A stretch of 64,000 bases of DNA from a virus (IMGVR_UViG_3300045988_112022); one strand, 5' to 3'; shown: positions 348 to 39,140, numbered from the stretch's first letter. Notes: generated by a model from the letters alone, not told the origin. Translations and numbers: made by a program.

Positions 348-1598
348 CTATTTTATTTTTTCAATCTCTTCGGCGAGCCATGAGATTTCTCTTCGTGTAT
401 ATACCCGTTCCGTAACATCTGAGATATTATGACCAACCATATATTTGATAGCATATTCATCTACGTTCGCAGCCTTAGCCATAGTCACAAATTGCACACG
501 TCCGTCATGGGGTTTATGTTCGATATTTAATTCAAGAGAATCTTTGATTTTCGTAAAAGCTGCCTGATATCTTGGGTATGTAAGTTGAACCAAATCTCCT
601 TTTATATTTTTGTAATTGAATAAATATTTACTATTACCCAATATAGCCTCATCATATCGTCTTCGAACAAGATCACGGATGCGACTGTGAATCGGAACTA
701 ATCTGTTTTTTCCAGCGATCGTTTTAATACCACCACTAAAAGTCCAATTATCCAAATCGACATTCTTGATTTCTATAAGTCCCAATTCTTTAGGACGCCA
801 CCCGGAATAACATTGAATCAATACTAAATCAGCATAATCTGTAGTCTCAAAATTATTCCAAAGCTTCTGCATTTCTTCATCAGTGAACGCAATATGATGT
901 TGTTCTGCTTCTTTTGCATCATGTTGAATAGTAGGCATTAATTTAGTATCACGAGCATAATTCCTATCAACAAGATCGTATTGTAAGGCATAGTCAAACA
1001 TCGCGTTCAATAGTGATTTTATACGTCTTTTAGTATTCGGAGTAGCTTTTTTCTCAATTCCCAATGAGCTGATAGAACCATTCTCCACACATCCTAAAAT
1101 ATGTCGCGATCGAACATCTCTAACTTTCATATCTTTGATGCTCCAGCAATAGGGCCATGCGTATGCACAGCTCCGCAAGGAAGCCTCTTTATTACCTGAC
1201 TGAATGTAGTAATCTTTCCATTTCTCATATAATTCACTCATAGTTATGGAATCGTCCAAATCATATGGGTTCCGATTATATTCCACAAGCGCTGCATAAG
1301 CATCGTTATAGTTTTCAAAGAATGCTTCCGGTTTGAGCAGCTTGCATATAGGTTTACCCTTTGGAGTCTTTCCTACAGTCACCATAGCTCTGAATGGTTT
1401 CCGGAGATTACGTCCTTTAAGCTCACTTATTTGGCCGAACCCATTAGGTAATCGGCGTCTCTTACGTGTGGATTTTCTTACAGGCTTAGGCTGTTCCTTC
1501 AGTGGATACCCGCAATGAGGACACGCGAAGGCCCGATCGCTAACCTGTAAATCGCATTCTGGACATTTGATCAACATATCGTTACCAATCCTTTCCAT
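348..1598 (-). CDS. int: Tyrosine recombinase / phage integrase with N-terminal zinc ribbon
   Basis: 416-aa ORF. N-terminus has CPECD..CPHCG zinc ribbon and an AP2-like arm-binding region (LPNGFGQI..FRAMV). C-terminus has HKPHDGR (HxxR), VGH and YTRRE catalytic-Tyr context. Confidence 0.9.
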   Translation of the reverse strand: MERIGNDMLIKCPECDLQVSDRAFACPHCGYPLKEQPKPVRKSTRKRRRLPNGFGQISELKGRNLRKPFRAMVTVGKTPKGKPICKLLKPEAFFENYNDAYAALVEYNRNPYDLDDSITMSELYEKWKDYYIQSGNKEASLRSCAYAWPYCWSIKDMKVRDVRSRHILGCVENGSISSLGIEKKATPNTKRRIKSLLNAMFDYALQYDLVDRNYARDTKLMPTIQHDAKEAEQHHIAFTDEEMQKLWNNFETTDYADLVLIQCYSGWRPKELGLIEIKNVDLDNWTFSGGIKTIAGKNRLVPIHSRIRDLVRRRYDEAILGNSKYLFNYKNIKGDLVQLTYPRYQAAFTKIKDSLELNIEHKPHDGRVQFVTMAKAANVDEYAIKYMVGHNISDVTERVYTRREISWLAEEIEKIK

Positions 1599-3321: not shown

Positions 3322-3609
3322 TCAATCGTCAAATCTGTCGCAGGATGTCTTGCAATTCGGATATGGAGCGCCACATGAAACGCATCCTGATGGAATATCC
3401 GGTTCAGAATCGACGAGGATACAACCATCTACAAGATTGATATACGGACCGTTATCCTCATATTCTCCAATATCGTAGACTTTACCGCAGTTGGGACATA
3501 CGAATTGATCATCTTCTAAATTCATCAATGCGCCGCAATCACAAACTGCTTCGCCCTGGAGAATAAGCTGAATAATTTCATCTTCATTTTCTGTGAAATA
3601 TCCATTCAT
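3322..3609 (-). CDS. Cys-rich zinc-ribbon protein
   Basis: GAGGAGG RBS before the internal ATG (MNGYFTEN). CDCG..CPNCG and CVSCG..CKTSC motifs. Confidence 0.6.
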   Translation of the reverse strand: MNGYFTENEDEIIQLILQGEAVCDCGALMNLEDDQFVCPNCGKVYDIGEYEDNGPYINLVDGCILVDSEPDIPSGCVSCGAPYPNCKTSCDRFDD

Positions 3610-3641
3610 AATGGTGGACCTCCTCATATATTGGTCTAATA

Positions 3642-3670
3642 ATTATACACCGTAATTCGTGGAATTTACA
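3642..3670 (-). promoter_or_regulatory. SigmaA-type promoter for the minus-strand pair 3609-3083
   Basis: Minus strand reads TGTAAA-17 nt-TATAAT with a TG extended -10. Confidence 0.45.
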
Positions 3671-3683
3671 GTCACTTTAATGA
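3656..3683 (+). promoter_or_regulatory. Conserved phage element copy (variant TTCGTG-N15-TTAATGA)
   Basis: TTCGTGGAATTTACAGTCACTTTAATGA upstream of CDS 3712. Confidence 0.45.
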
Positions 3684-3711
3684 AAAAACTTATTTCAAAG
3701 GAGAGATTGAG

Positions 3712-3939
3712 ATGAATAGAATGAAATTCGAAGGACGTATGAACTATTTTATGTTAACTGCCATCAGATCGGCTAAGAATGAAGATGGATTGATATCCGA
3801 TCGAGATTTAAAAGCTATAGAACTGATGAAGGAACTTATTGGTTATGCGGAGGAATTGAACTACGAAATTGAAAAACTCAAGAAAGAAGTGAGCAATTTG
3901 AAAAGAGAAAACGAGAGAGCAGAGAAGATAGGGGCATAG
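3712..3939 (+). CDS. Hypothetical coiled-coil protein
   Basis: AAAGGAGAG RBS; 75 aa. Confidence 0.6.
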   Translation: MNRMKFEGRMNYFMLTAIRSAKNEDGLISDRDLKAIELMKELIGYAEELNYEIEKLKKEVSNLKRENERAEKIGA

Positions 3940-3956
3940 CCTCTGTCTTTTATTTT
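3926..3956 (+). terminator. Intrinsic terminator
   Basis: AGATAGGGGC-ATA-GCCTCTGTCT stem (with G-U pairs) then TTTATTTT. Confidence 0.5.
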
Positions 3957-3982
3957 CGCGTAGAAATCAGCCCCTTTTATGA
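3955..3982 (+). promoter_or_regulatory. Conserved phage element copy (TTCGCG-N15-TTTATGA)
   Basis: TTCGCGTAGAAATCAGCCCCTTTTATGA. Confidence 0.5.
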
Positions 3983-4014
3983 GAAGAAAACATATTTTGA
4001 AGGAGGTTTTTATT

Positions 4015-4209
4015 ATGTCAATTAAAGAGAGGAAAGAAATCACAAAGATGCTCGTGAAAGTAGAAGTGGTGATATTGATGATGATATTTACAATAATATT
4101 GTTACACACAATGCCACTTGCTGGAACCGCAATGTTTGTGGTCGACTGTATTTCTATTGGCTTATATGCCAAAGCAAAATCTGAAGAATACGAGGAAGAG
4201 TTCTATTAA
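4015..4209 (+). CDS. Small membrane protein
   Basis: GGAGG RBS before ATG 4015; one hydrophobic helix. Confidence 0.55.
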   Translation: MSIKERKEITKMLVKVEVVILMMIFTIILLHTMPLAGTAMFVVDCISIGLYAKAKSEEYEEEFY

Positions 4210-5210: not shown

Positions 5211-6125
5211 ATGGGGGAAATACGAAAGATGAAAGAAAAATTGTTATCAAAGAAAATACTACCAGTTCTACTATGTGTGATACTCATCGCAGGCTCCGTA
5301 TGTTTCGGAACATTCATAGCAAGTAAGCCTAATACCTATAAGAAAACAATAGCCGAGCTTGATGAAAAATCCGCAGATGTTGCCAAAATGTCAGTCGCTA
5401 CATTGGGCATGTCTACTTTAATTGCAGCTGTTCCGGGAGACACAACCACTCCAATCGCTGATTATCTTGTAGATTTAAATTCATGGTTACTGATAATCAT
5501 GATGGTTTTGACGCTGGAAAAATATTTGCTGACAATAATCGGAAAAGCGGTATTTTGGCTCATAATACCTATAGGATTAGCTTTGATTGGGATAAGTATT
5601 CCTCCCAAAAGTCAATCATTAAAAATAAGAGGTTTTAACATTCTATTGGCTGGGCTTTTAGTATGGGCGATCGTCCCTACCGGAATGATGATATCCAGAG
5701 ATATTGAAAGAACATATAGTTTTTCAGTAAGCGATGTTGCTAATGAAACCGAGAATATTCAGAATAAAGCAGCGGAAATAGAAGAGAACGACGATTCTGA
5801 AGAGTCAGATGGCGAGGAGGACGAAAACATCATAAGCGGATTTATTTCGAAAGCCAAGGATGCCGTTGAAGATGTTATTATAAACCCGCTCGAAGAAAAA
5901 GTCGCTCAGGCCAAGAAAATGGTGAATACCGTGGTCAATGCGATCATCGTTTTGGTTATAACATCTTGTGTGATTCCATTGTTTACGTTAATTGCGTTCT
6001 TATTATTAATAAAAATAACATTGCATTTAGATCTACTTGGGGAAATAGATTCCGTACGGTTAGCGTTGGTTTCGGGACAGAAAAATGCACTCGGTAAAAT
6101 CAAAATAAAACACAAAAAATCTTAA
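5211..6125 (+). CDS. Multi-pass membrane protein with acidic central loop
   Basis: 304-aa ORF with several hydrophobic helices and an EENDDSEESDGEEDE loop. Alternative start ATG 5229. Confidence 0.7.
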   Translation: MGEIRKMKEKLLSKKILPVLLCVILIAGSVCFGTFIASKPNTYKKTIAELDEKSADVAKMSVATLGMSTLIAAVPGDTTTPIADYLVDLNSWLLIIMMVLTLEKYLLTIIGKAVFWLIIPIGLALIGISIPPKSQSLKIRGFNILLAGLLVWAIVPTGMMISRDIERTYSFSVSDVANETENIQNKAAEIEENDDSEESDGEEDENIISGFISKAKDAVEDVIINPLEEKVAQAKKMVNTVVNAIIVLVITSCVIPLFTLIAFLLLIKITLHLDLLGEIDSVRLALVSGQKNALGKIKIKHKKS

Positions 6126-9266: not shown

Positions 9267-10040
9267 ATGAACGTAAAAATGACACTCAGAAGAAACTCAC
9301 CAAAGCTCCTGGCAATACTCGCTGCGATGGGGACGGTATCTACGGCATTCGCAACGGCGAGAGCCACACCAAAAGCACTGTTACTTATTCAGGAGGCGGA
9401 AGCTCAAAAAGGAGAGGATTTGACTGCACTTGAAAAAGTTAAAGTAGCTGCAGTGCCTTATGTTCCAGCAGTGTTACTTGGCTCGGCTACTATTGCGTGC
9501 ATATTTGGAGTTCAGATGTTGAATCGAAAGACTCAATCCTCTATGACCAGTGCATACGCTTTGTTGGATCAGGGCTTTAAAGACTATCGGCGAAAACTTA
9601 AGGAATTATACGGTGACGAGGCAGATAAGAAAGTTATCGAAGCTCTGGCGGTAGAGAAGTCTCAAACAGTATATATCAATGCCTCCTATTTGGATGGACC
9701 TTGTGATTTAGCCCTAGAAGAAAATTCATCTAAACCGGTTCTCTGGTACGATGAATATTCAAAGAGATTCTTCACAGCCAGTCTCGAACAGGTTCTCATG
9801 GCAGAATACCACCTGAACCGAAATTATATTCTCAGAGGAGAAGCTGTGATAAACGAACTGTATGAATTCCTCGGCCTGGAGCCTACTGATTGGGGTGCTG
9901 AAGCCGGATGGGCTCCGATGGATGAAGGAATGTTCTGGATCGAATTCAACCACATTCCGGCAAAACTTGATGATGGTTCCGTCTTTTATATTATTGAAAT
10001 GCCGTTCGAACCAATTCTGAACTATGATGAATATTACTGA
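9267..10040 (+). CDS. Two-TM phage protein, paralog A of a three-member family
   Basis: AAAGGAG RBS. N-terminal SPKLLAILAAMG..ATPKAL helix, a second helix, then a YALLDQGFKDYRRKL amphipathic segment. Confidence 0.75.
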   Translation: MNVKMTLRRNSPKLLAILAAMGTVSTAFATARATPKALLLIQEAEAQKGEDLTALEKVKVAAVPYVPAVLLGSATIACIFGVQMLNRKTQSSMTSAYALLDQGFKDYRRKLKELYGDEADKKVIEALAVEKSQTVYINASYLDGPCDLALEENSSKPVLWYDEYSKRFFTASLEQVLMAEYHLNRNYILRGEAVINELYEFLGLEPTDWGAEAGWAPMDEGMFWIEFNHIPAKLDDGSVFYIIEMPFEPILNYDEYY

Positions 10041-10068
10041 CTCGCGAGAATTCCAACGACTTTAACGG
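10041..10068 (+). promoter_or_regulatory. Conserved phage element copy (variant CTCGCG-N15-TTAACGG)
   Basis: CTCGCGAGAATTCCAACGACTTTAACGG followed by AAAGGAGG. Confidence 0.45.
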
Positions 10069-10086
10069 AAAGGAGGTATACTAGAA

Positions 10087-10239
10087 ATGAAGAAATATGA
10101 TTTAATAAAAATGGCTGGTTGGATTGCTGTGGCTATTGGCGGATTAGTTGCTAGCTGGGCTACAGATAAGCAGTCGAAAGAAGAAATCGACAAAAAACTT
10201 GAAGAGTATATTACCGAGAAAACAGATAAGGAGTCCTAA
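10087..10239 (+). CDS. 50-aa membrane peptide (below the ORF-track cutoff)
   Basis: AAAGGAGG RBS. MKKYDLIKMAGWIAVAIGGLVASW...; ends ..KES-stop in a hairpin variant. Confidence 0.5.
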   Translation: MKKYDLIKMAGWIAVAIGGLVASWATDKQSKEEIDKKLEEYITEKTDKES

Positions 10240-10260
10240 TGGGCTTCTTATTTTTGTTTT
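10231..10260 (+). terminator. Variant of the conserved hairpin (GAGTCC-TAAT-GGGCTT)
   Basis: Hairpin followed by CTTATTTTTGTTTT. Confidence 0.45.
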
Positions 10261-10292
10261 AACAAAACTATGTTCATTTGAAAGGAGATATC

Positions 10293-11099
10293 ATGAACAA
10301 ATCTGTAACAAAATTCATTAAAACTGTGAAACGAGGATTCGGAAAACGAAGTCCTGAGATTCTGCTCGGGATTGGCATTGCGAGCGGCATTACCGCGACT
10401 GTCTTAGCGGTTAAAGCTACCCCGAAAGCATTGGAACTTCTGACTGAAAAGAGATATGAGAAATATGGCGATACGTTGAAAGAAGATGATTCGTACGATG
10501 ATATGCCAGAACTCAAGCCCGTTGAAGTAGTCAAAACCACATGGAAATGTTACATTCCAGCAGCTATCAGTGGTGCTGCATCCATCGCTTGTCTGCTCGG
10601 ATCTCATTCGGTACATGCGAAAAGAAATGCCGCACTGGCTACAGCCTATAAATTATCCGAAACGGCACTGAACGAATACCGTGAAAAAGTTGTAGAGGAA
10701 ATCGGTGAAGAGAAAGAGAAAGTCATCCGAGATAAAGTTTCCCAGAAACATCTGGACGAGACGCCTGTATCCAAAAACGAAGTGATCATCACAGGGACTG
10801 GTAAGCAGCTTTGCTATGACGGCATTTCCGGACGATATTTTGAATCAGACATTCAGACAATCCGCGCTGCAGTCAACAAGATCAATGAAACCATGGTGTA
10901 CGAGATGTATGCGGCATTAAATGATTTCTATAATGAAATCGGTTTGAGTAATACAGACATGGGTGATGAACTTGGCTGGAATCTTGATGATGGTTTACTC
11001 GAAATAAGTTACGGAGCCATGGTCGCGGATGACGGTAGACCTTGCATTACTCTGGACTATCATATTGCGCCGAGATACGACTTCTCAAAGCTTATGTAG
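10293..11099 (+). CDS. Two-TM phage protein, paralog B
   Basis: AAAGGAG RBS before ATG 10293. SPEILLGIGIASGITATVLAVKATPKALELL and NAALATAYKLSETALNEYREKV align with paralogs A and C. Confidence 0.75.
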   Translation: MNKSVTKFIKTVKRGFGKRSPEILLGIGIASGITATVLAVKATPKALELLTEKRYEKYGDTLKEDDSYDDMPELKPVEVVKTTWKCYIPAAISGAASIACLLGSHSVHAKRNAALATAYKLSETALNEYREKVVEEIGEEKEKVIRDKVSQKHLDETPVSKNEVIITGTGKQLCYDGISGRYFESDIQTIRAAVNKINETMVYEMYAALNDFYNEIGLSNTDMGDELGWNLDDGLLEISYGAMVADDGRPCITLDYHIAPRYDFSKLM

Positions 11100-11100
11100 A

Positions 11101-11128
11101 TTCGCGAAAAATACATATTGTTTAATGG
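11101..11128 (+). promoter_or_regulatory. Conserved phage element copy (TTCGCG-N15-TTAATGG)
   Basis: TTCGCGAAAAATACATATTGTTTAATGG. Confidence 0.5.
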
Positions 11129-11163
11129 AAAGAATATAAAAATCTGAAAGGAGATTATTTAAG

Positions 11164-11472
11164 ATGAAAGAAATCAAAGCAGAAGAGGTTAAAGAAGTTG
11201 AGGTAACTACAGAAGAGAATACGGAGACAGAAGTAGCCACTGAAGAAGTTAAGGAATCAAAGCTTAAAGCTTTTGGAACGAAAGTAAAAAGCGGGTTACA
11301 GAAACACGGAAAGAATATTGCAAAAGGTGCAGTGATCGGACTGGGTTTGGTAGCAGCTTATGCGATCGGATCAAGAGCTGGAGGCAGCGATGATGATTCT
11401 GACGTGGTAGCTGATTCCGATTATGTAATCGACGAAGCTGAATCTACCGATGATGAAGCATCAGAAAACTAA
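11164..11472 (+). CDS. Acidic protein with a central TM helix
   Basis: AAAGGAG RBS. E-rich N-terminus, GAVIGLGLVAAYAIG helix, D/E-rich C-terminus. Confidence 0.65.
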   Translation: MKEIKAEEVKEVEVTTEENTETEVATEEVKESKLKAFGTKVKSGLQKHGKNIAKGAVIGLGLVAAYAIGSRAGGSDDDSDVVADSDYVIDEAESTDDEASEN

Positions 11473-11492
11473 GATTTATATTCTCTAACAGG

Positions 11493-11528
11493 GGAGTACC
11501 TATAACAAGGTATTCCTCTTTTTGTTTT
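11493..11528 (+). terminator. Intrinsic terminator
   Basis: GGAGTACC-TATAACAA-GGTATTCC followed by TCTTTTTGTTTT. Confidence 0.5.
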
Positions 11529-11547
11529 CAACGGAAAGGAGCGTATC

Positions 11548-11739
11548 ATGCCCAGGTATATTTACAAAGGTCCGGTCATGGAATTCAACACTCTTCTTGC
11601 TGATATTTGGGAGGGAGAGACTGTTGCTCCTTCTGAGAAGAAAGCAAGGAGTAATTTAACATATCAGTTTAAGAAAAGAAATAACCGTATTGCGGGAACA
11701 CGCATAACGTTACCCGGAAAAATTATGATGGTTGATTAA
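11548..11739 (+). CDS. Hypothetical protein
   Basis: AAAGGAG RBS; 63 aa. Confidence 0.6.
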   Translation: MPRYIYKGPVMEFNTLLADIWEGETVAPSEKKARSNLTYQFKKRNNRIAGTRITLPGKIMMVD

Positions 11740-11752
11740 GAGAGGAGAACTC

Positions 11753-12343
11753 ATGGAAGATTATAAATCAAATTCCCATAAAGCAAAAGCTGAAGCTAAA
11801 GAAGCTGCTGAGAAAAAAGTAAATAAGGTCGTTACCGGTAATGTTAAGAGAAAAAAGAAGAGTGAGGTAAGCAAATTCAAAGATGTATTTATCTCCGAGG
11901 ATGTATCTAATGTCAAAACTTATATTTTTCTTGACGTGCTGGTACCGGCAATCAAGAAAGCTGTCTCAGATATTGTGAAAGACGGAATCGATATGATGTT
12001 ATATGGAGACAAACGAAGCAGCAGTCGTGGCTCATCCAGTTATGTATCATATAGATCATATTCCGATAACACGAGTCGTAACTCAAGAAGGTCGATAAGA
12101 GCCAGCTACGATTTTGATGATGTGGTGTTCGATACCCGAGGCGAGGCTGATGAAGTGTTATCCAGCATGGACGAATTGATGGATACTTACGGAGTTGTCA
12201 GTGTTGCTGATATGTATGATTTATGTGGCATGACTTGTAACTACACAGACAATAAATACGGTTGGAAGAGCCTTGCCAGAGCTGATATCTTAAGTGTTCG
12301 GGACGGTTACATGATCAAACTTCCAAAGGCAGAACCGATTTAA
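11753..12343 (+). CDS. Hypothetical protein with basic N-terminus and Ser/Arg-rich centre
   Basis: AGAGGAG RBS before ATG 11753. Confidence 0.65.
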   Translation: MEDYKSNSHKAKAEAKEAAEKKVNKVVTGNVKRKKKSEVSKFKDVFISEDVSNVKTYIFLDVLVPAIKKAVSDIVKDGIDMMLYGDKRSSSRGSSSYVSYRSYSDNTSRNSRRSIRASYDFDDVVFDTRGEADEVLSSMDELMDTYGVVSVADMYDLCGMTCNYTDNKYGWKSLARADILSVRDGYMIKLPKAEPI

Positions 12344-12352
12344 GGAGAAGAT

Positions 12353-12694
12353 ATGGAAGATCTAAAAGAGATTATTTTAAAAACTGAATACAGTAATAAA
12401 TTCGATGAGATTAGAAAAAACCTCGTCGTGCAGTCATATTTCAAATACGGGAAAGCTTCAAGAAATTTCGTAGCAGGGTATGTGGATGCGATTGGATCGC
12501 TTAAAAAGTGTATTCAGAAATTTGAAGAAACAGGTAACTTAGAATATCTGGCAGACGCTGCAAACTATTGCATGTTCAGATACATGTATCCACAAACAGG
12601 AGAATATTTCAAGCATACTGATTCCAACGAATCTGCCGGAATTGATGGTATGTCAGTAAAAGAAATCGAAGAGTTTAAAAAGGAGAACGAATAA
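12353..12694 (+). CDS. Hypothetical protein
   Basis: AAGGAG RBS; 113 aa. Confidence 0.65.
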   Translation: MEDLKEIILKTEYSNKFDEIRKNLVVQSYFKYGKASRNFVAGYVDAIGSLKKCIQKFEETGNLEYLADAANYCMFRYMYPQTGEYFKHTDSNESAGIDGMSVKEIEEFKKENE

Positions 12695-13626
12695 TGAAAA
12701 AATTAGCATTTATGAATACTATTTCCAGATCAGCACACAGAATGGCATTTAAGCTTCAGAAACACAGCCCGGAAATCCTTGTGGTGGCTGGAGTAATCGG
12801 CGCGGTGGCAAGTGCAGTGATGGCTTGCAAGGCCACAACTAAACTGGGCGATATTTTAGACGACTCCAGAGATAAAATTGATTCCATTCATGATGTGATT
12901 GAGAATCCGGATAAGGTTAATGCGGAGTATACACAGGAAGACGGAAACAAAGATCTTGCTATTGTATATACGCAGACCGCTCTGAAGGTTGCTAAAGTTT
13001 ATGCTCCTGCGGTTATTCTCGGAGGATTATCTATCACGGCTATTCTTACGTCTAACAATATTCTCAGAAAGAGGAACATTGCACTGGCTGCAGCTTACAC
13101 AGCAGTCGACAAAAGCTTCAAAGAATATCGTGGAAGAGTCGTTGAAAGATTCGGAAAGGAATTGGATAAAGAGCTCCGTTACAACATCAAAGCTAAGGAA
13201 GTGGAAGAGACTGTTACCGACGAAAAAGGTAACGAAAAAACTGTGAAAAAGACTGTCGACGTAGTAGATCCAAATGCCATCAGTGAATTTGCGAAATTCT
13301 TCGATGATGGATGCATTGGATGGACCAAAGATCCGGAACTCAATATGATTTTCTTACGCCAGCAGGAAGCAGCGGCAACTAAACGTCTGGAAGATCGTGG
13401 ACATTTATTCTTGAATGAAGTATACGATATGCTTGGCATCCCACACACAAGAGCAGGTCAGATTGTAGGATGGATCTATGATAAAAAGAATCCGATCGGT
13501 GATAACTATGTCGATTTCGGCATTTACGATACTAGCAAAGAAGCGAATCGTAACTTTGTGAACGGATACGAAAGAACAATTCTGCTTGATTTCAATGTTG
13601 ATGGAAACATCCTTGATCTAATGTGA
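12694..13626 (+). CDS. Two-TM phage protein, paralog C
   Basis: SPEILVVAGVIGAVASAVMACKATTKL, NIALAAAYTAVDKSFKEYRGRV and a C-terminal GW..LDF segment align with paralogs A and B. Confidence 0.75.
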   Translation: MKKLAFMNTISRSAHRMAFKLQKHSPEILVVAGVIGAVASAVMACKATTKLGDILDDSRDKIDSIHDVIENPDKVNAEYTQEDGNKDLAIVYTQTALKVAKVYAPAVILGGLSITAILTSNNILRKRNIALAAAYTAVDKSFKEYRGRVVERFGKELDKELRYNIKAKEVEETVTDEKGNEKTVKKTVDVVDPNAISEFAKFFDDGCIGWTKDPELNMIFLRQQEAAATKRLEDRGHLFLNEVYDMLGIPHTRAGQIVGWIYDKKNPIGDNYVDFGIYDTSKEANRNFVNGYERTILLDFNVDGNILDLM

Positions 13627-27147: not shown

Positions 27148-28209
27148 ATGATCAAATTAGAAAATGTAGTTCCGGCAAGCCTAGAGCAGATGGAGTTTAT
27201 TATTCAAGGAATGAGGAATCCGATGAACTCGTGGGAGAAGAGTGATAGTGGTAGAGGCTGCGCTGGCAAGTTATGCGGAAGCCATTGTGCGTTTAGTTCT
27301 CAGTGGTGTGGTAACACTCCGAAATATGTAGTAGGAGAAGCCGATCACTCCCTCATGCAGCGCTTATCCAATGCTGGTACAGAACACCGTAAGTATTTAA
27401 GAATGATGCCGGTGTATGTGAGAATTACGGCGTCTTTATATTGGTGGAAAGAATTTGATACTTATAAGGTTGGAACAGTTGCAAACTCTTGCAGTACAAT
27501 GCATAAGATTGCGGAGAAAGAATTTACGCTGGAGGATTTTTCGATAGAACATATCTGTATCCGGCAGTCGATGGATGTATTAAAGGAAACGATCGACACA
27601 TTGAACGTATTCAGAGGCGTTTATTTGAATGGTGGAATTTTACGTTATGAGAACGGCAATATAAAATGCTTTGGTAAAAAAGATAAAGAAATTTGGTGGC
27701 AGCTTATTCAGCTTCTTCCGAGCAGCTATAACCAGACTCGTAATGTTATGTTGAATTATGAGGTTCTGGCGAATATTTACAGACAGCGGAAAAATCATAA
27801 GCTGGATGAGTGGCGAGAGGTTTGTAAGTGGATTGAGAGCTTGCCGTACAGTGAGCTGATTACTGGACTTCCTATCGAGTCAGATCAGGCAGTTGAAGAA
27901 AAACGTTTTCCGCAGCCATTTCCTTGGAATAAGGACGATGTATATTGCGATAATTGTGAACATTTTCATGACTGCTTAAACAAAGGAGGTCTCGCTGACG
28001 TTACAACCAGTGATGATATTGTAAAAAATGGTTTTGGACGACAACATTACGTTAACAAACCTGGGTATGATTGTCCGAAGAAGGTTCAGTCCCAACTTGC
28101 CGAAGATGATCCCATGAATTTTAGTGTTGGAAAAATTATTCATGATCTCATGGCTAAAGAACTTACCGAAGACGTTAAGAAACAGATTTTAGAGGAGGAT
28201 TCGAAATGA
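27148..28209 (+). CDS. Divergent ThyX-like (flavin-dependent thymidylate synthase fold) protein with a Cys/His-containing C-terminal extension
   Basis: GTEHRKYLRMMPVYVRITASLYWWKEFDTYKVGTVANSCSTMH lines up with the ThyX core. The canonical RHRxxS motif is absent. Confidence 0.35.
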   Translation: MIKLENVVPASLEQMEFIIQGMRNPMNSWEKSDSGRGCAGKLCGSHCAFSSQWCGNTPKYVVGEADHSLMQRLSNAGTEHRKYLRMMPVYVRITASLYWWKEFDTYKVGTVANSCSTMHKIAEKEFTLEDFSIEHICIRQSMDVLKETIDTLNVFRGVYLNGGILRYENGNIKCFGKKDKEIWWQLIQLLPSSYNQTRNVMLNYEVLANIYRQRKNHKLDEWREVCKWIESLPYSELITGLPIESDQAVEEKRFPQPFPWNKDDVYCDNCEHFHDCLNKGGLADVTTSDDIVKNGFGRQHYVNKPGYDCPKKVQSQLAEDDPMNFSVGKIIHDLMAKELTEDVKKQILEEDSK

Positions 28210-30388: not shown

Positions 30389-30396
30389 TTATTTTT

Positions 30397-30424
30397 TTCG
30401 CGTTGAAAACATCTCCTATAATGA
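30397..30424 (+). promoter_or_regulatory. Conserved phage element copy (TTCGCG-N15-ATAATGA); last copy in the window
   Basis: TTCGCGTTGAAAACATCTCCTATAATGA. It shares its TTCGCGTTGAAAACA 5' half with the copy at 7791, and its TCCTATAATGA 3' part plus the downstream GAGAAAATTAT with the copy at 8053. Confidence 0.5.
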
Positions 30425-32212: not shown

Positions 32213-32395
32213 ATGAGTAAAAAGAAAGGGAGACCGAAGAAAGATTTCGCTCGGGAGTACCAGTATCGAGTGCGTTTATCACTTGGCGATATTTATACTT
32301 TAGAATATATACAGGAAGTGACTGGTAAAACAAAGGCCGAAATTTTCAGAGATGGATTGAAAGCGGAGTATGAAAAGGCGAGACGGCTTGATTAA
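32213..32395 (+). CDS. Ribbon-helix-helix (CopG/Arc/ParG-like) DNA-binding protein
   Basis: GGAGG RBS. Basic N-terminus, a YRVRLSLGD beta-strand, then two helices. Confidence 0.5.
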   Translation: MSKKKGRPKKDFAREYQYRVRLSLGDIYTLEYIQEVTGKTKAEIFRDGLKAEYEKARRLD

Positions 32396-32528
32396 TTGGA
32401 TATCCAAAAAATGCGAAAAATGAATTATTGGATATCCAAAAAGTCACGAATATTAATCGTTGCAGGAGGTACAGGTTTGAATTATTGGATATCCAAAAAG
32501 TCTACGAAACGATTAATTGGATATCCAA
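32396..32528. repeat. Four copies of the 12-bp palindrome TTGGATATCCAA
   Basis: Copies at 32396, 32428, 32485 and 32517, forming two pairs each spaced 32 bp. Each is flanked by AAT(T/A) and an A-run. Confidence 0.85.
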
Positions 32529-32546
32529 AAAATCGGAAATTAGCCC

Positions 32547-32576
32547 AAAATAGGCTAAAAATGGCTTAAAATGGCT
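32547..32576. repeat. Three tandem 10-bp A-tract repeats (AAAATAGGCT / AAAAATGGCT / TAAAATGGCT)
   Basis: Helically phased A-tracts directly after the palindromes. Confidence 0.75.
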
Positions 32577-32587
32577 ATTTTCATCAT

Positions 32588-32698
32588 GGTACTGTAGTAC
32601 CGATCTAATTAGCTATCTTATTTATTTAAAAAATTGAATTTTTCGTATAGCTAATATACATTGTACTACAGTACCACCATTTATTGTACGTACAATAA
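32588..32698. repeat. Large imperfect dyad plus an 18-bp perfect palindrome
   Basis: GGTACTGTAGTACC at 32588 pairs with GTACTACAGTACC at 32663. An inner TTAGCTAT/ATAGCTAA pair and an AT-rich centre lie between them. The perfect palindrome TTATTGTACGTACAATAA (32681-32698) abuts the RBS of the XRE gene. Confidence 0.75.
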
Positions 32699-32712
32699 AG
32701 AAAGGAGATTCT

Positions 32713-32943
32713 ATGACTGAACAGGAGCTTATTGAATCGTTTGCAGGCAACTTGGATTACATTATGAGATCGGAACATATGAATCAAAGTGAGCTGGCAC
32801 GAAGGAGTCATTTGAGTAGGGAGTCAATCTGTAAATATTTAAAAGGTCAGCGTATGCCTACGTTGAAGGCACTTATGAATTTAAGCTATGCCTTGAGATG
32901 CAACATTGAAGAATTAACTCCGTTTATTCAACTTATCGATTGA
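32713..32943 (+). CDS. XRE-family HTH transcriptional regulator
   Basis: AAAGGAG RBS. MNQSELARRSHLSRESICKYLKGQRMPTLKAL. Confidence 0.8.
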   Translation: MTEQELIESFAGNLDYIMRSEHMNQSELARRSHLSRESICKYLKGQRMPTLKALMNLSYALRCNIEELTPFIQLID

Positions 32944-32953
32944 GGTGACGGAA

Positions 32954-33388
32954 ATGAGCGAATTAAAAAAACAATGGATTGACGATGAATATCTGTGGCA
33001 GGATTTCTTGGACTACTTCAATCCAGACTTCGATGAGATTGCCGATATTAAACAGATGAGCTGTTATGATATTCTGGTCACCATGAAAAATGGGGTGCAA
33101 TATATTTACGACAATTACCGTCAGACACGAAGGCGACTCCCAAATAGTTGGGATGATATGAGTCTTAAAGAATTTCATATGGATGCACATATAAGATTAT
33201 ATTCTATGATGAAGCGGGAAGGTTTCACATATGATGACCTGTCTGAAGAAACGGGCATATCTCCAGGAACTATAAGTAATTATGTGAATGGCGTGACATC
33301 CCCAACCCTCGACAGATTATTTCTGATTGCCAAAGCATTAGGCTGCCGGATTGAAGACCTAATCTATATCGAGCATATGTACAGATAA
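32954..33388 (+). CDS. Protein with a C-terminal XRE-type HTH domain
   Basis: FTYDDLSEETGISPGTISNYVNGVTSPTLDRLFLIAKALG. Alternative GTG start at 32945. Confidence 0.7.
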   Translation: MSELKKQWIDDEYLWQDFLDYFNPDFDEIADIKQMSCYDILVTMKNGVQYIYDNYRQTRRRLPNSWDDMSLKEFHMDAHIRLYSMMKREGFTYDDLSEETGISPGTISNYVNGVTSPTLDRLFLIAKALGCRIEDLIYIEHMYR

Positions 33389-33393
33389 CCCAT

Positions 33394-33428
33394 GAGGGCG
33401 CTTGGTTTACAGGCGCTCTTTTTTTGGT
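33394..33428 (+). terminator. Intrinsic terminator
   Basis: GAGGGCGC...GCGCTCTT stem followed by TTTTTT. Confidence 0.55.
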
Positions 33429-33827: not shown

Positions 33828-33963
33828 CCACTGTGTCGAAAAACTCACACGTGAAAATAACATCCCCTTTTATAGGGAGAAGATAATATATCGGTCAAAA
33901 TCGGTCAATGTATTATCTTTTTATTTTTATGGATATTCAGCTCTATGAAAGGAGAAAGAGTTC

Positions 33964-34254
33964 ATGAAAGAAAATAAGTTTCAGGCAGATTTGAAAAAAG
34001 AGCTTAGAGCTATATTTCCTGGTTGCATTGTAACCAAACTGGATTCGAGCGATATTCAGGGTATCCCCGATCTTCTTGTTTTATACAAAGACAAGTGGGC
34101 GGCTCTGGAAGTTAAGAAAAGTGCTACGGCATCACATCGTCCGAATCAGGATTACTATGTTGCAAAAATGAACGCCATGTCATTTTCACGATTTATCTAC
34201 CCAGAAAATAAGGAGGATGTTTTAGATGAACTTCGTGAATCATTCAAAGCTTAG
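33964..34254 (+). CDS. VRR-NUC domain nuclease
   Basis: GIPDLLVLYKDKWAALEVKK...NQDYYVAKMN fits the D..E.K VRR-NUC core. Confidence 0.6.
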   Translation: MKENKFQADLKKELRAIFPGCIVTKLDSSDIQGIPDLLVLYKDKWAALEVKKSATASHRPNQDYYVAKMNAMSFSRFIYPENKEDVLDELRESFKA

Positions 34255-34786: not shown

Positions 34787-35332
34787 ATGACTGAATTCTA
34801 TAACGGTTGGGAAGAAAATGAAGTATGGGTTAATCTTGAGCGTTTCCCGAAACATCAAATCAGCACATTCGGTAGAATACGGAATAAATGTAGCGGCCAT
34901 ATTCTCAAACCATTTTTGGACAGATACGGTTATCTACGGGTTAGCATCGGTAATACCGATAATGTATACATACATCGTCTAATGTGTGAAACTTTTTATG
35001 GCGCACCAAAATTCGATCGAGCTCAAGTTAACCATATAGATTGCGATCGAGAAAATAACCACATATTTAATCTTGAATGGTGTTCAGCTAAAGATAACAT
35101 AAAATGGGCTTGTGAACACGGAAAACTAGATTATAAAAAAGGGTTGAAAATGGCGGTTAAAGCCAACGTAAAACCTGTCCGGATAATAGAACTCGATAAA
35201 ACCTTTTCGAGTGTAAAAGATTGTGCCAAATTTCTTCATATAAATCCGAATAGAGTAAGTAGATGTCTTATCGGATCAAGAAAAGGGCAACGTATACATG
35301 GATATCATATAGAGTACGCGGAGGCAGAATGA
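34787..35332 (+). CDS. HNH homing endonuclease (NUMOD4 + HNH + C-terminal NUMOD/IENR repeat)
   Basis: WVNLERFPKHQISTFGRIRN, then VNHIDCDRENNHIFNLEW, then IIELDKTFSSVKDCAKFLHINPNRVSRCL..GYHI. Confidence 0.8.
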   Translation: MTEFYNGWEENEVWVNLERFPKHQISTFGRIRNKCSGHILKPFLDRYGYLRVSIGNTDNVYIHRLMCETFYGAPKFDRAQVNHIDCDRENNHIFNLEWCSAKDNIKWACEHGKLDYKKGLKMAVKANVKPVRIIELDKTFSSVKDCAKFLHINPNRVSRCLIGSRKGQRIHGYHIEYAEAE

Positions 35333-38241
35333 TGAATAGTATAGTAGAAGAAATTGAATCATTTTTAGGATCAGCCTCTATGACAGATGAGGAATATCTG
35401 GCTCATTATGGTATGCCCCGCCGTTCCGGGCGATATCCTTGGGGGTCGGGGAAAAATGGCTATCAAAGCTCACGTGACTTCTTAGGTCGTGTTGAGCAGA
35501 TGCGAAAATCTGGTTTTACATATACTGATGAAAACGGTAAGAAATGGACTGGTGATAATGCGATTGCTAAATCACTTGGTTACAATTCTACCGATTTCCG
35601 AACAGTGTATGCGATTGCAAAAGACGAGCGTAGATCAGATATGGTTGCCACAGCCAAACGTCTCAGAGACAAAGAAGGAATGAACAATTCTGAGATTGGT
35701 CGAAAAATGGGAATCAATGAATCATCTGTTCGATCACTCCTTGATCCAAATTCCGAGTCAAGAATGAAGCAGGCCAGAGACACGGCCAAATTCTTGAAAG
35801 AACAGGTTGATAAAAAAGGCATGGTTGATGTCGGTGCCGGTGTAAACAATGATCTGAAAATCACAAAAGAAAAACTGGATCAGGCATTGTTTATATTACA
35901 GGCTGAAGGAAACTATGAGGTTTATGGAGGTCGATTCTCACAGGTCACAAATAAAGGTCAGATGACGACTCAGAGAGTTCTTTGTAAACCAGGAACACCG
36001 CATAGTGCAATCTACGATTTTGATAATGTCAAGACAGTCACTGATTATATTTCCAGAGATGATGGGAAGACCTATGAAAAGAAATTCACATATCCTGAAA
36101 GCTTAGATTCCAAGCGTCTTATGATTCGCTATAAAGAAGATGGCGGTATTGATAGAGATGGAACCGTTGAACTCAGGAGAAATGTACCGGATCTGTCGCT
36201 TGGCGAATCCAAATATTCTCAGGTCCGTATAATGGTTGACGGAAAGAAATATATCAAAGGCATGGCTGTCTATAAAGATGATAAAGACTTTCCACCAGGT
36301 GTCGATGTTATATTTAACACCAACAAGTCCAAGAGTGTTCCGAAACTGGAAGTTCTCAAAGATGTGAAACCAGATCCGGACAACCCCTTCGGCTCTCTTA
36401 TTAAAGATGCCGATCAAGGCGGGCAGTATTGGTATACCGACAAAAATGGTAAGAAGAAGCTCGGCCTTATTAATAAGCGATCCGATGAAGGCGATTGGAC
36501 TGAATGGAAAGATGCTTTACCATCTCAGTTCTTATCCAAACAGTCAAAAGCTATGGCAGAAAAACAGCTTGGCATCGCTAAAGCAGACAAGCAGGCAGAA
36601 TATGAAGCTATCATGGCTCTGACTAATCCGACTGTAAAGAAATATTATCTTGATAAATTCGCAAGCAGTTGTGACTCAGCAGCCGTACATCTTAAAGCAG
36701 CCGCATTACCGGGTCAGAAATACCATGTTATTCTACCTGTCACATCTCTGAGTGAGAAAGAAGTATACGCCCCTGGATATCCTGATGGAAGTAAACTTGC
36801 TCTTGTTCGATATCCTCATGGTGGTACATTTGAGATTCCAATCTGTACAGTCAACAACAAAAACAAAGATGCTATCAAGATGATTGGAAAGGATTCTATC
36901 GACGCGATTGGTATCAACAGTAGAGTTGCTGAACGATTATCTGGAGCCGACTTCGATGGCGACACTGTAATGTGTATTCCCACTCATGATCGTGCCGGAA
37001 AAGTTAAGATCGCTAGTCGTCCGCCTCTTGAAGGGCTCGAGGGATTCGATCCTAAGATGGGTTATCAGGGCGAGAAGAAAACTGGATCTGATGGTAAAGA
37101 ACATTGGTATCGAGACGGCAGAGAATACCAGCTCATGAAGAAGACTGATACTGAGATGGGTAAAATCTCTAATCTGATTACCGATATGACTATCATTGGA
37201 GCTACCGATGATGAATTAGCTCGTGCTGTAAGACATAGCATGGTCGTCATCGATGCTGAGAAGCATCATCTGGATTACAAACAGAGTGAAAAAGACAACA
37301 ACATTCAGGCACTAAAGCAGAAGTATCAGATCAAGGTCGACGAGAACGGGAAGATCAAATACGGCGGCGCATCCACCCTTATTTCCAGAGCCAAAGGAGA
37401 AGTTACTGTTGATAAGCGACAGGGAACTCCTAAACCAAACCTCCCGGGTAAAGAATGGTATGATCCATCCAGACCTGACGGAGCTCTTATCTACAAGAAA
37501 GCTGACGACGCTACCTATACCGTCAAGAAAGTGGATAAGAAGACCGGTGAGGTAACGGAGGTAACTAAGAAGCGTACCGATAAGAGTAACCGTATGTCTG
37601 AAACTGATGACGCTATGACCTTGGTATCTAAGTATAGACACCCAATGGAACTTGTGTATGCTGATTACGCTAATAGCATGAAAGCTATGGCCAACAAAGC
37701 AAGGGTTGAGTCCAGTAAAGCCGGTAAGATAGCCTACAGTAAGGATGCTAAGAGGAAGTATCAGGAAGAGTATGACAGTCTCACTAAGAAACTGGCGATA
37801 GCCGAATCTAATACACCTCGTGAACGTGCAGCCCAGCGTATGGCTAATGCTACCGTTCAGAGAAAGCAGAAAGCTGCTGAAGAAGCTGGTGTTAAGCTCA
37901 AACCGAAGGATGTTAAGAAAGCAAGTCAGCAAGCACTCACGAAAGCAAGAGAAGAAGTTGGCTCTGTTTCGAGAAGAGACCGAAACATCGTCATCACTGA
38001 TAAAGAATGGGATGCTATACAGGCAGGTGCAGTCAGTGAATCCATACTCAAACGTGTTCTCAATAACTGTGATCCGGATTCTTTAAGACAAAGAGCAATG
38101 CCGAAAGAAACAAAAGTTCTTAATCAAGCAAAGATTAACAGAATCAAAGCGATGTCTGCATCGTACACAATTCAGCAGATTGCAGAAAAGCTTGGCGTTT
38201 CAACCTCAACAGTTTCCAAGTATTTGAAAGGAGCGAATTAG
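35329..38241 (+). CDS. Candidate single-subunit double-psi-beta-barrel RNA polymerase (YonO / RdRP-like) with N- and C-terminal HTH modules
   Basis: GGAGG RBS; ATG 35329 overlaps the HNH stop (ATGA). LALVRYPHGG (36805) then LSGADFDGDTVMCIP (DFDGD at 36949-36963). HTH-like NNSEIGRKMGINESSVRSLL and IQQIAEKLGVSTSTVSKYLKG. Confidence 0.55.
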   Translation: MMNSIVEEIESFLGSASMTDEEYLAHYGMPRRSGRYPWGSGKNGYQSSRDFLGRVEQMRKSGFTYTDENGKKWTGDNAIAKSLGYNSTDFRTVYAIAKDERRSDMVATAKRLRDKEGMNNSEIGRKMGINESSVRSLLDPNSESRMKQARDTAKFLKEQVDKKGMVDVGAGVNNDLKITKEKLDQALFILQAEGNYEVYGGRFSQVTNKGQMTTQRVLCKPGTPHSAIYDFDNVKTVTDYISRDDGKTYEKKFTYPESLDSKRLMIRYKEDGGIDRDGTVELRRNVPDLSLGESKYSQVRIMVDGKKYIKGMAVYKDDKDFPPGVDVIFNTNKSKSVPKLEVLKDVKPDPDNPFGSLIKDADQGGQYWYTDKNGKKKLGLINKRSDEGDWTEWKDALPSQFLSKQSKAMAEKQLGIAKADKQAEYEAIMALTNPTVKKYYLDKFASSCDSAAVHLKAAALPGQKYHVILPVTSLSEKEVYAPGYPDGSKLALVRYPHGGTFEIPICTVNNKNKDAIKMIGKDSIDAIGINSRVAERLSGADFDGDTVMCIPTHDRAGKVKIASRPPLEGLEGFDPKMGYQGEKKTGSDGKEHWYRDGREYQLMKKTDTEMGKISNLITDMTIIGATDDELARAVRHSMVVIDAEKHHLDYKQSEKDNNIQALKQKYQIKVDENGKIKYGGASTLISRAKGEVTVDKRQGTPKPNLPGKEWYDPSRPDGALIYKKADDATYTVKKVDKKTGEVTEVTKKRTDKSNRMSETDDAMTLVSKYRHPMELVYADYANSMKAMANKARVESSKAGKIAYSKDAKRKYQEEYDSLTKKLAIAESNTPRERAAQRMANATVQRKQKAAEEAGVKLKPKDVKKASQQALTKAREEVGSVSRRDRNIVITDKEWDAIQAGAVSESILKRVLNNCDPDSLRQRAMPKETKVLNQAKINRIKAMSASYTIQQIAEKLGVSTSTVSKYLKGAN

Positions 38242-38518: not shown

Positions 38519-38534
38519 TCCGATATCAAAGCAT

Positions 38535-38609
38535 AGGGGGAGGGTCGCTAAAAAAGCACCCCCTCCCTGCATCGCGCCGGTCTTCCGAATTTCCCCGGCG
38601 GGATTTTTC
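38535..38609 (+). other. GC-rich twin hairpins in a 304-bp non-coding gap (terminator and/or cos/pac candidate)
   Basis: AGGGGGAGGG...CCCCCTCCCT, then CGCCGG-N14-CCGGCG followed by GATTTTT. This is the most GC-rich non-coding patch I noticed in the window. Confidence 0.45.
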
Positions 38610-38822
38610 CAGAAACAATTTATATTTTTATGCTGCCCTCAGAGGGGTTTATTGAACCACAAAGCCATTTAATCCGCGTGTATTTCTCCTTTCAAGATTT
38701 GTACTTCTTTTGAGTTAGTCAACCTCGTACCGATAGGTTCCTTAAACTCCTCTAAAGACAGCATAACATTAATGAAATCTGACAAATAGTCGATAACAAT
38801 TAAATTCAAGGAGGCGTAAACG

Positions 38823-39140
38823 ATGCCAAAGGTAGCAAAAACTGAACGGCGTCCAATGCTTACGCCGGAAGCAAAAGAAAACCAGATGATATCTCTGGCT
38901 ATGGATTGCGCTGAAAGACAGATGATGGAAGGTACGGCTTCTTCGCAGGTTATAACTCATTTTTTAAAACTGGGTTCGGGAAAAGAAAGACTCGAGAGAG
39001 AAAAACTTGAAGAAGAGAACAAGCTTCTGAGAGCGAAGACAAAAGCGTTGGAAGAGAGTGCTGAATCTAAGGTTATGTATGAAGAAGTTCTTCGAGCTAT
39101 GCGCGACTACAGCGGAGCAGGTGATCCGGATGAGTATTAA
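38823..39140 (+). CDS. Hypothetical protein, possible small terminase or packaging accessory
   Basis: AAGGAGG RBS. First gene of the late operon; coiled-coil C-terminus. Function guessed from position only. Confidence 0.6.
   Translation: MPKVAKTERRPMLTPEAKENQMISLAMDCAERQMMEGTASSQVITHFLKLGSGKERLEREKLEEENKLLRAKTKALEESAESKVMYEEVLRAMRDYSGAGDPDEY

Follow-up and report, generated by a model that had tools for sequence, protein, structure and literature searches.

The 64,000-nt viral sequence IMGVR_UViG_3300045988_112022 (the window, here always the whole stretch) carries at 32396-32712 a dense set of palindromes, A-tracts and inverted repeats, placed between a gene for a small ribbon-helix-helix (RHH) protein and two genes for XRE-type helix-turn-helix (HTH) proteins. 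We interpret this segment, with moderate confidence, as a composite transcriptional control region that forms a gate between an early operon and the xre76-xre147 unit. It is most likely such a transcriptional gate, and not a replication origin or a centromere. Comparison of related phages shows that the RHH protein, of 60 amino acids (aa), recognises the 12-bp palindromes beside its gene, which are its predicted binding sites; that the RHH gene and this array travel between phages as one apparent cassette of ~290 bp; and that the window is a putative recombinant, with a cassette of the GGATATCC type and a palindrome near the ribosome-binding site (RBS) of xre76 that is still of the GTACGTAC type. 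The region is real and highly structured, each of its predicted elements being non-random, and it is not a new kind of system.

RHH protein and co-varying palindromes

The features that carry this reading are:
32213..32395, plus strand: RHH gene; 60-aa protein with an AT-hook-like N-terminal arm, KKKGRPKK
32396..32528, no strand: four-site array; TTGGATATCCAA at 32396, 32428, 32485 and 32517, in two pairs
32250..32549 (approximate, 50-bp resolution), no strand: swapped specificity cassette; RHH residues ~12-60 and the four-site array
32680..32699, no strand: fifth palindrome TTTATTGTACGTACAATAAA; perfect 20-bp palindrome with core TTGTACGTACAA at 32684-32695

The original prediction, made from the sequence alone, described four exact 12-bp palindromes with 32-bp spacing within pairs and 89 bp between pairs, and this was confirmed. 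TTGGATATCCAA occurs exactly four times in 64 kb, at spacings of 32, 57 and 32 bp with pair starts 89 bp apart, and all remaining matches have two mismatches and lie far off. The same prediction placed the first copy over the stop codon of the RHH gene; the 12-mer itself starts right after the TAA (32393-32395), and it is the AT-rich flank that overlaps the stop. Each copy is the centre of an AT-flanked imperfect palindrome of ~24-26 bp (CGATTAATTGGAT/ATCCAAAAAATCG, 85% complementary). Two open reading frames (ORFs) inside the array, 32396-32569 and 32428-32553, were judged spurious; relatives replace or shorten the array without keeping these frames.

Relatives in which XRE147 is 94-99% identical (~15 IMG/VR contigs and five metagenome contigs) encode an RHH protein only 54-62% identical to that of the window, and at identical positions their four array sites read TTGTACGTACAA in place of TTGGATATCCAA. 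Further lineages, cited here by handles of the form L030, were gathered by anchoring on the conserved upstream gene and by RHH profile search. With strand positions numbered backward from the invariant R of the RLS motif (R-L-S/T), four site types are tied to two beta-strand residues (-4 and -2) across about ten lineages:
Site type TTGGATATCCAA: strand (Q/G)-Y-R-(V/L); window, L030, L031-type (L031/L066-70; L069 typed separately), L060-65, L128, L032-36
Site type TTGTACGTACAA: strand R-L-N-V, R-Y-E-L or R-L-E-V; L017-29, L196, L197
Site type TTGTAATACAA (11 bp): strand V-V-T-I; L069
Site type TTGTATATACAA: strand G-Y-Y-L; L193

The RHH proteins of P0016, P0019 and P0022, which have N at position -4, are listed under the TTGGATATCCAA type by protein only. 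Lineages with Arg at -2 have G at position 4 of the site and C at 9, and those with Arg at -4 have a central CG, an apparent residue-base pattern that is chemically sensible; the outer TTG...CAA of the sites and the invariant Arg of the RHH protein never change. Between L069 and the L031-type lineages the sequence separating the sites is near-identical, and the main differences are the site cores and the RHH protein, along with the XRE76 arms and alleles. Because the palindromes co-vary with the RHH beta-strand in many lineages, we read the four palindromes of the window as RHH sites, and the RHH-operator layout suggested in the original prediction is supported. RHH specificity appears to reside in the two beta-strand residues, and the covariation points, indirectly, to a dimer that reads bases with alternate residues of its N-terminal beta-strand. 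Spacing within pairs is preserved across lineages at three or four helical turns (32 bp, or ~3 turns, here), and the array has 2, 3, 4 or 6 sites. A scan of IMG/VR for the pattern of a GGATATCC site near an RBS returned mostly chance matches, with at least three sites in only 4 of 65 loci.

Modelling indicates that the 60-aa protein has the RHH fold (beta-alpha-alpha, ~45 residues). A single-sequence AlphaFold2 model was too weak for a fold search, and a model based on a 27-sequence alignment was used instead; this model has a predicted local distance difference test score of 87, with an extended N-terminus and helices at 24-37 and 41-59. About 35 of its top 40 Foldseek matches in the PDB are RHH proteins, with root-mean-square deviations of 1.2-2.2 A over ~42 residues, and these include CopG-DNA, Arc, TacA, AmrZ, NikA, ParD, ParG and MatP. 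PHROG 876, a ‘transcriptional repressor’, matches the protein at 1e-7. Among its allelic relatives the best Pfam matches are RHH_3 (E = 0.025) and RHH_1 (E = 0.16), which do not reach the curated-model threshold, and the distant relative P0039 has a precomputed weak match to RHH_1. A sequence profile search of the PDB with the RHH protein gave nothing meaningful and no detectable similarity to Arc itself. No second RHH gene was found among the window ORFs, where RHH, XRE76 and XRE147 are each the sole detectable protein of their own kind. The GRP arm is probably AT-hook-like and lies in the minor groove of the AT-rich site flanks, since KKKGRPKK is invariant across RHH alleles and every site is AT-flanked.

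RHH homologues with 31-40% identity and a conserved GRP arm were found by tblastn in Streptococcus phages Javan362, Javan166 and phiJH1301-1 and in C. difficile phage phiCD211. At the three loci examined (Javan362, phiJH1301-1 and phiCD211), an annotated antirepressor is encoded one or two genes after the RHH gene, which has its own sigma-A promoter, with embedded repeats, in front of it. In the window the RHH gene begins 4 nt past the preceding gene and is thus the last gene of the upstream co-directional operon. There is no intergenic promoter, all RHH sites are downstream, and an autoregulatory operator over the promoter that transcribes the RHH gene was not seen. Downstream of the RHH gene there is no antirepressor; xre76 and xre147 are found instead.

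Cassette exchange and the RBS-proximal palindrome

Sliding identity between the window and L018 is 48-74% within ~32250-32549; on either side it is mostly 96-100%, although a few 50-bp bins fall to 86%. XRE147 is conserved at 94-99% among relatives whatever RHH type they carry. An RHH protein of identical sequence, together with a near-identical control region, was also found inside a 120-kb metagenome contig.

The perfect palindrome reported at the RBS of the first XRE gene was verified and extends to 20 bp; TTTATTGTACGTACAATAAA ends 2 nt ahead of the AAGGAG ribosome-binding site, and the xre76 ATG is at 32713. Flanks included, it is identical to the array sites of L017-L029 and L040-L044, whose RHH protein differs, and it differs from the array sites of the window at 4 of the 12 positions. 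Because it is identical to the array site of these relatives and falls outside the swapped cassette, the fifth palindrome is best explained as a leftover operator of a GTACGTAC-type RHH protein. Its earlier interpretation as an XRE-specific operator is not borne out, as it matches the array sites of a different RHH type.

Four lineages (the GTAC-type relatives, L030, L128/L175/L176 and L069) have at the RBS-proximal position a site of the same type as their local array, from which we take the regular design to be an array plus one RBS-proximal site, served by one protein. In the window and L035 the proximal site is intact and of a type other than that of the resident RHH protein. The position is degenerate, and the orphan site possibly decaying, in L034 (TTGTGGCACAA) and L193 (TTGTGGCCTAA), and L031 and L196 have nothing there. 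We infer that repeated swaps leave orphan sites that afterwards decay. A further suggestion, which we hold to be unlikely, is that RHH-array cassettes are exchangeable identity modules that cause cross-talk between related prophages. If this were true, the operon of the window could be controlled in trans by the GTACGTAC-type RHH protein of relatives and not by its own, which would place a heteroimmunity-like or kin-discrimination layer on an operon just upstream of a phage RNA polymerase module.

Dyad, A-tracts and the proposed gate

Between the array and the end of the XRE unit the following features were located:
32527..32581, no strand: five phased A-tracts (32527, 32537, 32547, 32557 and 32568) and a closing T-tract (32578), between array and dyad
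32587..32600, no strand: left outer arm TGGTACTGTAGTAC; GGTAC-N4-GTACC pseudo-palindrome, candidate XRE76 operator
32608..32655, no strand: inner inverted repeat ATTAGCTAT (32608-32616) / ATAGCTAAT (32647-32655), flanking a 30-bp AT-rich core
32663..32676, no strand: right outer arm GTACTACAGTACCA; second candidate XRE76 operator
32713..32943, plus strand: XRE76; 76-aa Cro/C1-type HTH protein, first gene of the controlled operon
32945..33388, plus strand: XRE147; N-terminal domain unknown, C-terminal HTH_3
33394..33428, plus strand: terminator-like hairpin and T7 run, after xre147

The dyad of ~88 bp with an inner pair and an AT-rich centre was found as originally described. Its outer arms are 100% complementary over 14 nt, and the arm motif is unique to this locus in the window, with the observed count reached in 0 of 100 shuffles. 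The arms differ completely among XRE76 allele classes:
Outer arm, window: GGTACTGTAGTACC
Outer arm, L034/35: GGTGCACCAATCGTATCA
Outer arm, L031: GTTTCGTATAAGAAAC
Outer arm, L128: TTATCCAAGAGGTAA
Outer arm, L193: TTACTATAGTATTAC
Outer arm, L069: TTACAATAGTAAATT
Outer arm, L196: GTAAACTTTTT (no XRE76-type gene downstream)

Predicted recognition helices likewise differ among the four XRE76 alleles compared (window, L034/L035, L031 and L069). Five lineages have the two arm copies as inverted repeats and two (L069 and L193) have them as direct repeats, and for this reason the predicted role of the arms as two operators of one protein fits better than an obligatory hairpin. To this extent the genetic-switch layout of the original prediction is supported: the outer dyad behaves like a pair of operators whose sequence follows that of the first XRE gene. 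The inner repeat ATTAGCTAT/ATAGCTAAT is semi-conserved and common to lineages with different arms. Most lineages also keep a central TTCA-N4-6-TGAA quasi-palindrome in the core.

Both XRE proteins, predicted at 32713 and 32945/32954, score above the Pfam cut-offs. XRE76 matches HTH_26 at 1.2e-9 (38.7 bits, cut-off 22) and HTH_3 at 7e-8, and XRE147 matches HTH_3 at 1.3e-14 (54.3 bits, cut-off 23); the RHH assignment of the remaining flanking gene, at 32213, agrees with the modelled fold. Since a terminator-like hairpin follows xre147, the two XRE genes form a closed two-gene unit.

An RNA-level role for the dyad, which may coexist with an operator role, is unlikely. It would require that transcription from upstream runs through the 88-bp dyad and that the RNA folds into a long hairpin, at which the early transcript ends or RNase III cleaves; the XRE unit would thereby be insulated, and the arms would co-vary through pairing. 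The predicted fold of -38.1 kcal/mol (z = -6.7) is consistent with this, but a strong z-score is trivial for any inverted repeat. Five lineages have entirely different arm sequences that are still inverted, and the sole single-nucleotide polymorphism in an arm (A to G at 32596, L021/L040) is G-U-compatible; the direct-repeat arms of L069 and L193, however, cannot pair. The right arm precedes TTTTTT in L034/L035 and ACCATTTATTG, a poor U-run, in the window. The dyad has no Rfam match, with sub-threshold chance hits only.

The three tandem, helically phased 10-bp A-tract units noticed in the original prediction are present at 32547-32576 (AAAATAGGCT, AAAAATGGCT and TAAAATGGCT) and, together with A-runs at 32527 and 32537, make up five phased tracts. 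In a parameter-free test, AA/TT periodicity of 10-11 bp reached its global maximum over the 64 kb at the array and A-tracts, with sliding widths of 60, 100 and 190 bp. Among 15 unique close relatives, 23 positions vary within 32532-32578, including one inverted unit. The stretch between 32579 and the ATG, with the dyad, the core and the fifth site, is strongly conserved, only 8 of its 134 positions being variable. In distant lineages the A- or T-tracts are still phased, although their sequence is unrelated or their orientation reversed. Because phasing is conserved while sequence drifts, the segment would act in this lineage as a static intrinsic bend and not as iterons; the iteron interpretation is not borne out, since sequence and even orientation are free to vary.

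At the equivalent genome position in L060, L062, L081, L071 and L075, GCCCACTTTT/AAAAGTGGGC and TTTGACCA repeats occur in both orientations. This region is intergenic, downstream of a PHROG 6568 homologue, and is found with or without an RHH gene. Where the RHH gene is present in these distant phages, GGATATCC sites are interleaved with all these repeats, and the genes downstream are lipoprotein- or PASTA-like accessory genes, not XRE genes. The GCCCACTTTT/AAAAGTGGGC repeats could be homologous protein-binding units, which is a caveat to a pure-bend reading.

We consider a replication origin quite unlikely. Here the palindromes and A-tract units would be iterons, the AT-rich core an unwinding element and the RHH protein a specificity or copy-control factor. 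The region superficially resembles the lambda ori, with four palindromic repeats, phased A-tracts and an AT-rich centre; GCCCACTTTT/AAAAGTGGGC repeats stand at the same genome position in distant supergroup phages, even without RHH; and the phage encodes its own polymerase-primase, and therefore needs an origin somewhere. However, no initiator-like gene is adjacent, the neighbours being the RHH gene, two XRE genes and genes for small unknown proteins, and a helicase-loading domain is missing from the 60-aa RHH protein. The cumulative GC skew climbs monotonically through 32.5 kb and shows no inflection nearby, but the skew is governed mainly by co-directional transcription, so that this is weak evidence. 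A relative, L016 (IMGVR_UViG_3300045988_171778), lacks the whole stretch from DUF5688 to mid-xre147 and hence the module; site number ranges from 2 to 6, A-tract sequence drifts, and the fifth site, at the ribosome-binding site, is in an operator position. The origin layout of the original prediction is not supported by these data.

A partition centromere, with RHH as a ParG/omega/ParR-type protein and the array as parS/parC, is very unlikely: a small RHH protein whose N-terminus is basic and flexible does stand beside a repeated-site array, and ParG is among its fold matches, but no ParA, ParM or TubZ-like nucleoside triphosphatase was found as a partner among ~50 window ORFs with Pfam, PHROGs, NCBIfam or PADLOC (the large ORFs 5211-6125 and 27148-28209 being without annotation), the tyrosine integrase (348-1598, minus strand) and the identical RHH protein inside a 120-kb contig speak against an extrachromosomal replicon, the isolated-phage homologues control antirepressor operons, and one site abuts the ribosome-binding site, so that the predicted ParG/CopG-type partition layout is not supported.

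For the transcriptional gate we propose the following mechanism. RHH, expressed together with the early genes, would act as a repressor in the manner of Arc and would restrain the XRE unit or silence it. Its dimers would bind the paired sites cooperatively on one DNA face, and the DNA would be bent towards the dyad by the phased A-tracts. Where the design is regular, the same RHH protein at the RBS-proximal site would directly block xre76 expression, and XRE76 would autoregulate via the two outer arms bracketing the AT-rich core. In the window the resident RHH protein should bind the four upstream sites and, because of the 4/12 differing positions, the fifth poorly or not at all; the proximal control point would be uncoupled from it. 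Transcription of xre76 would either start inside the core or arrive by read-through from upstream.

Several observations weigh against this gate. All RHH fold matches have Foldseek E values of at least 0.3, so that fold support is below formal significance, because the RHH domain is so small; the RHH protein of the window has no Pfam hit, with RHH_3, RHH_1 and AT_hook below threshold. The direction of RHH action, repression or activation, is taken solely from the homologues and from site position. A fixed-phase repression loop from the array to the fifth site was rejected, as the distance from site 4 to site 5 is 167, 144, 163 or 180 bp and helical phase is not kept across lineages. The arms, as candidate XRE76 operators over the promoter of that gene, stand on either side of the AT-rich core and vary from one XRE76 allele to the next, but they lie within 130 bp of the gene and this covariation could be linkage alone. 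The promoter itself is the other difficulty: a sigma-70 consensus scan of the intergenic region found none matching at 9/12 positions or more. The best sigma-A-like candidate, TTGAAT (32634-32639) and TACATT (32657-32662) with a 17-nt spacer, matches at 8/12 positions and is not conserved (TGCATT in L021/L027, TTAAAT in L017), and manual cross-lineage comparison gave no conserved -35/-10 pair. In L034/L035 the core interior, 32617-32646, is inverted (25/31 identical to the reverse complement vs 16/31 forward), which is awkward for an oriented promoter there.

Genomic setting and comparison with known systems

The window is a prophage-like element in which, the integrase aside, nearly all genes are on the plus strand, and it belongs to a group of uncultured human-gut prophages. 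Its replication genes encode a 1407-aa polymerase-primase, a helicase and a single-stranded DNA-binding protein, and the polymerase-primase and helicase genes sit 10-17 kb upstream of the palindrome region. ORFs of terminase, portal and tape-measure size are located downstream. A YonO-like single-subunit RNA polymerase is encoded at 35263-38241 (PHROG 4291, E = 0). YonO of SPbeta transcribes the late operon, starting downstream of its own gene (PMC5467207), and the region studied here, which is upstream of the polymerase gene, is on this basis presumably read by host RNA polymerase. The C-terminus of the YonO-like polymerase has a sigma-70 region-4-like HTH (NCBIfam sigma70-ECF 1.2e-6, residues 942-968), which could permit promoter recognition by the polymerase itself. 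After the polymerase gene and a small ORF there is a 300-bp non-coding stretch (38519-38822) with GC-rich hairpins such as AGGGGGAGGG...CCCCCTCCCT; it precedes a 105-aa ORF at 38823, the head of the block with the terminase-, portal- and tape-measure-sized ORFs. By analogy with the SPbeta YonO start site, a late promoter would be expected in this stretch. G+C changes from ~0.37 to ~0.43 at 34-36 kb, and the GC-skew slope halves around the polymerase gene. The composition change at 34-36 kb marks the early/late module boundary.

In the early region, three DUF6353 paralogues (257, 273 and 310 aa) are consecutive at 9267-13626. A TTCGCG(AA) motif occurs 12 times between 2.7 and 30.4 kb (2761, 3955, 7181, 7516, 7791, 8053, 8409, 8728, 11101, 19314, 22599 and 30397), and none was found between 30.4 and 49 kb of the window. 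At 30395-30420 it stands 14 nt upstream of TATAAT, before the operon that ends in the RHH gene, and the distant relatives L071 and L075 have a version of the form ACGCG...CCTATTATGG. The motif is a candidate phage-specific early promoter or operator class. Beyond the XRE unit, at 33880-33919 and just upstream of a nuclease gene at 33964, an AT-rich inverted repeat (AAGATAATATAT/ATGTATTATCTT) with two direct copies of ATCGGTCAA inside it precedes TTTTATTTTT; this is another small element, for control or termination.

A DNA similarity search against isolated phages and plasmids gave no match, and there is accordingly no annotated relative at the DNA level. A scan of GTDB genomes with the RHH profile returned nothing, and with the XRE147 profile only two distant matches, in Stomatobaculum and in an unclassified Clostridia metagenome-assembled genome. 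PADLOC gave generic HTH matches only, with no defence-system assignment, and a literature search on the palindrome found nothing relevant. In L016 the deletion (at 3578-4159 of that contig) creates an in-frame fusion between an N-terminal portion of DUF5688 and the final ~52 residues of XRE147, and it eliminates the RHH gene, array, dyad and xre76.

Two features make the region of interest: a clean series, found in nature, in which repressors and operators co-vary in pairs, and a cassette swap that can be demonstrated and has left an orphan operator. The series consists of 60-aa repressors and 12-bp operators, in which two strand residues and, in each half-site, two base pairs apparently determine specificity. 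To our knowledge, RHH proteins have had no simple recognition code, and the series is therefore directly testable; it could also supply orthogonal repressor-operator pairs. A regulator and its operators are seen moving as a ~290-bp unit, with remnants left behind. The region would furthermore be a control point just upstream of the YonO-like polymerase module, in this group of gut prophages.

Among known systems, the XRE part of the region resembles the Cro/CI-type operators of lambda and TP901-1 (CI/MOR), in that HTH_3 proteins are preceded by paired pseudo-palindromes bracketing an AT-rich core and the arms differ between alleles, as expected of immunity-type specificity. Unlike in those systems, both XRE genes are co-transcribed and not divergent, and no second operator set was found elsewhere in the window. 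A master-repressor role for the XRE unit is doubtful because the relative L016 persists as a contig without the module. The early-late switch of phi29 (p4 and p6) is possibly similar, with several regulator sites in an A-tract-curved intergenic region and an adjoining promoter with a poor -35 that is co-directional with the early genes; p4, however, is not an RHH protein and shares no homology, and activation-plus-repression logic is only conjectural here. CopG (pMV158) and omega (pSM19035), RHH repressors that bend DNA and bind repeated sites cooperatively, share with the RHH protein the fold, several adjacent sites on one helical face, and DNA curvature. They are plasmid copy-number or partition regulators acting on 13-bp pseudo-symmetric elements or 7-bp heptads over promoters, whereas the sites here are 12-bp perfect palindromes, three to four turns apart, in a prophage.

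The immI region of P22 (Arc/Mnt, ant operon) differs in that an antirepressor is regulated there and two XRE HTH genes here, and in that the 4+1 array here lies downstream of the RHH gene in place of one operator over its own promoter; the RHH protein also differs from Arc by its AT-hook-like arm. Like immI, the region is a secondary regulatory region far from the integrase end, with a very small RHH repressor that is made from the lytic-side transcript and palindromic sites. The homologues in Streptococcus and C. difficile phages, which stand upstream of an antirepressor with operators in their own promoter, have the arrangement of P22 Arc/ant.

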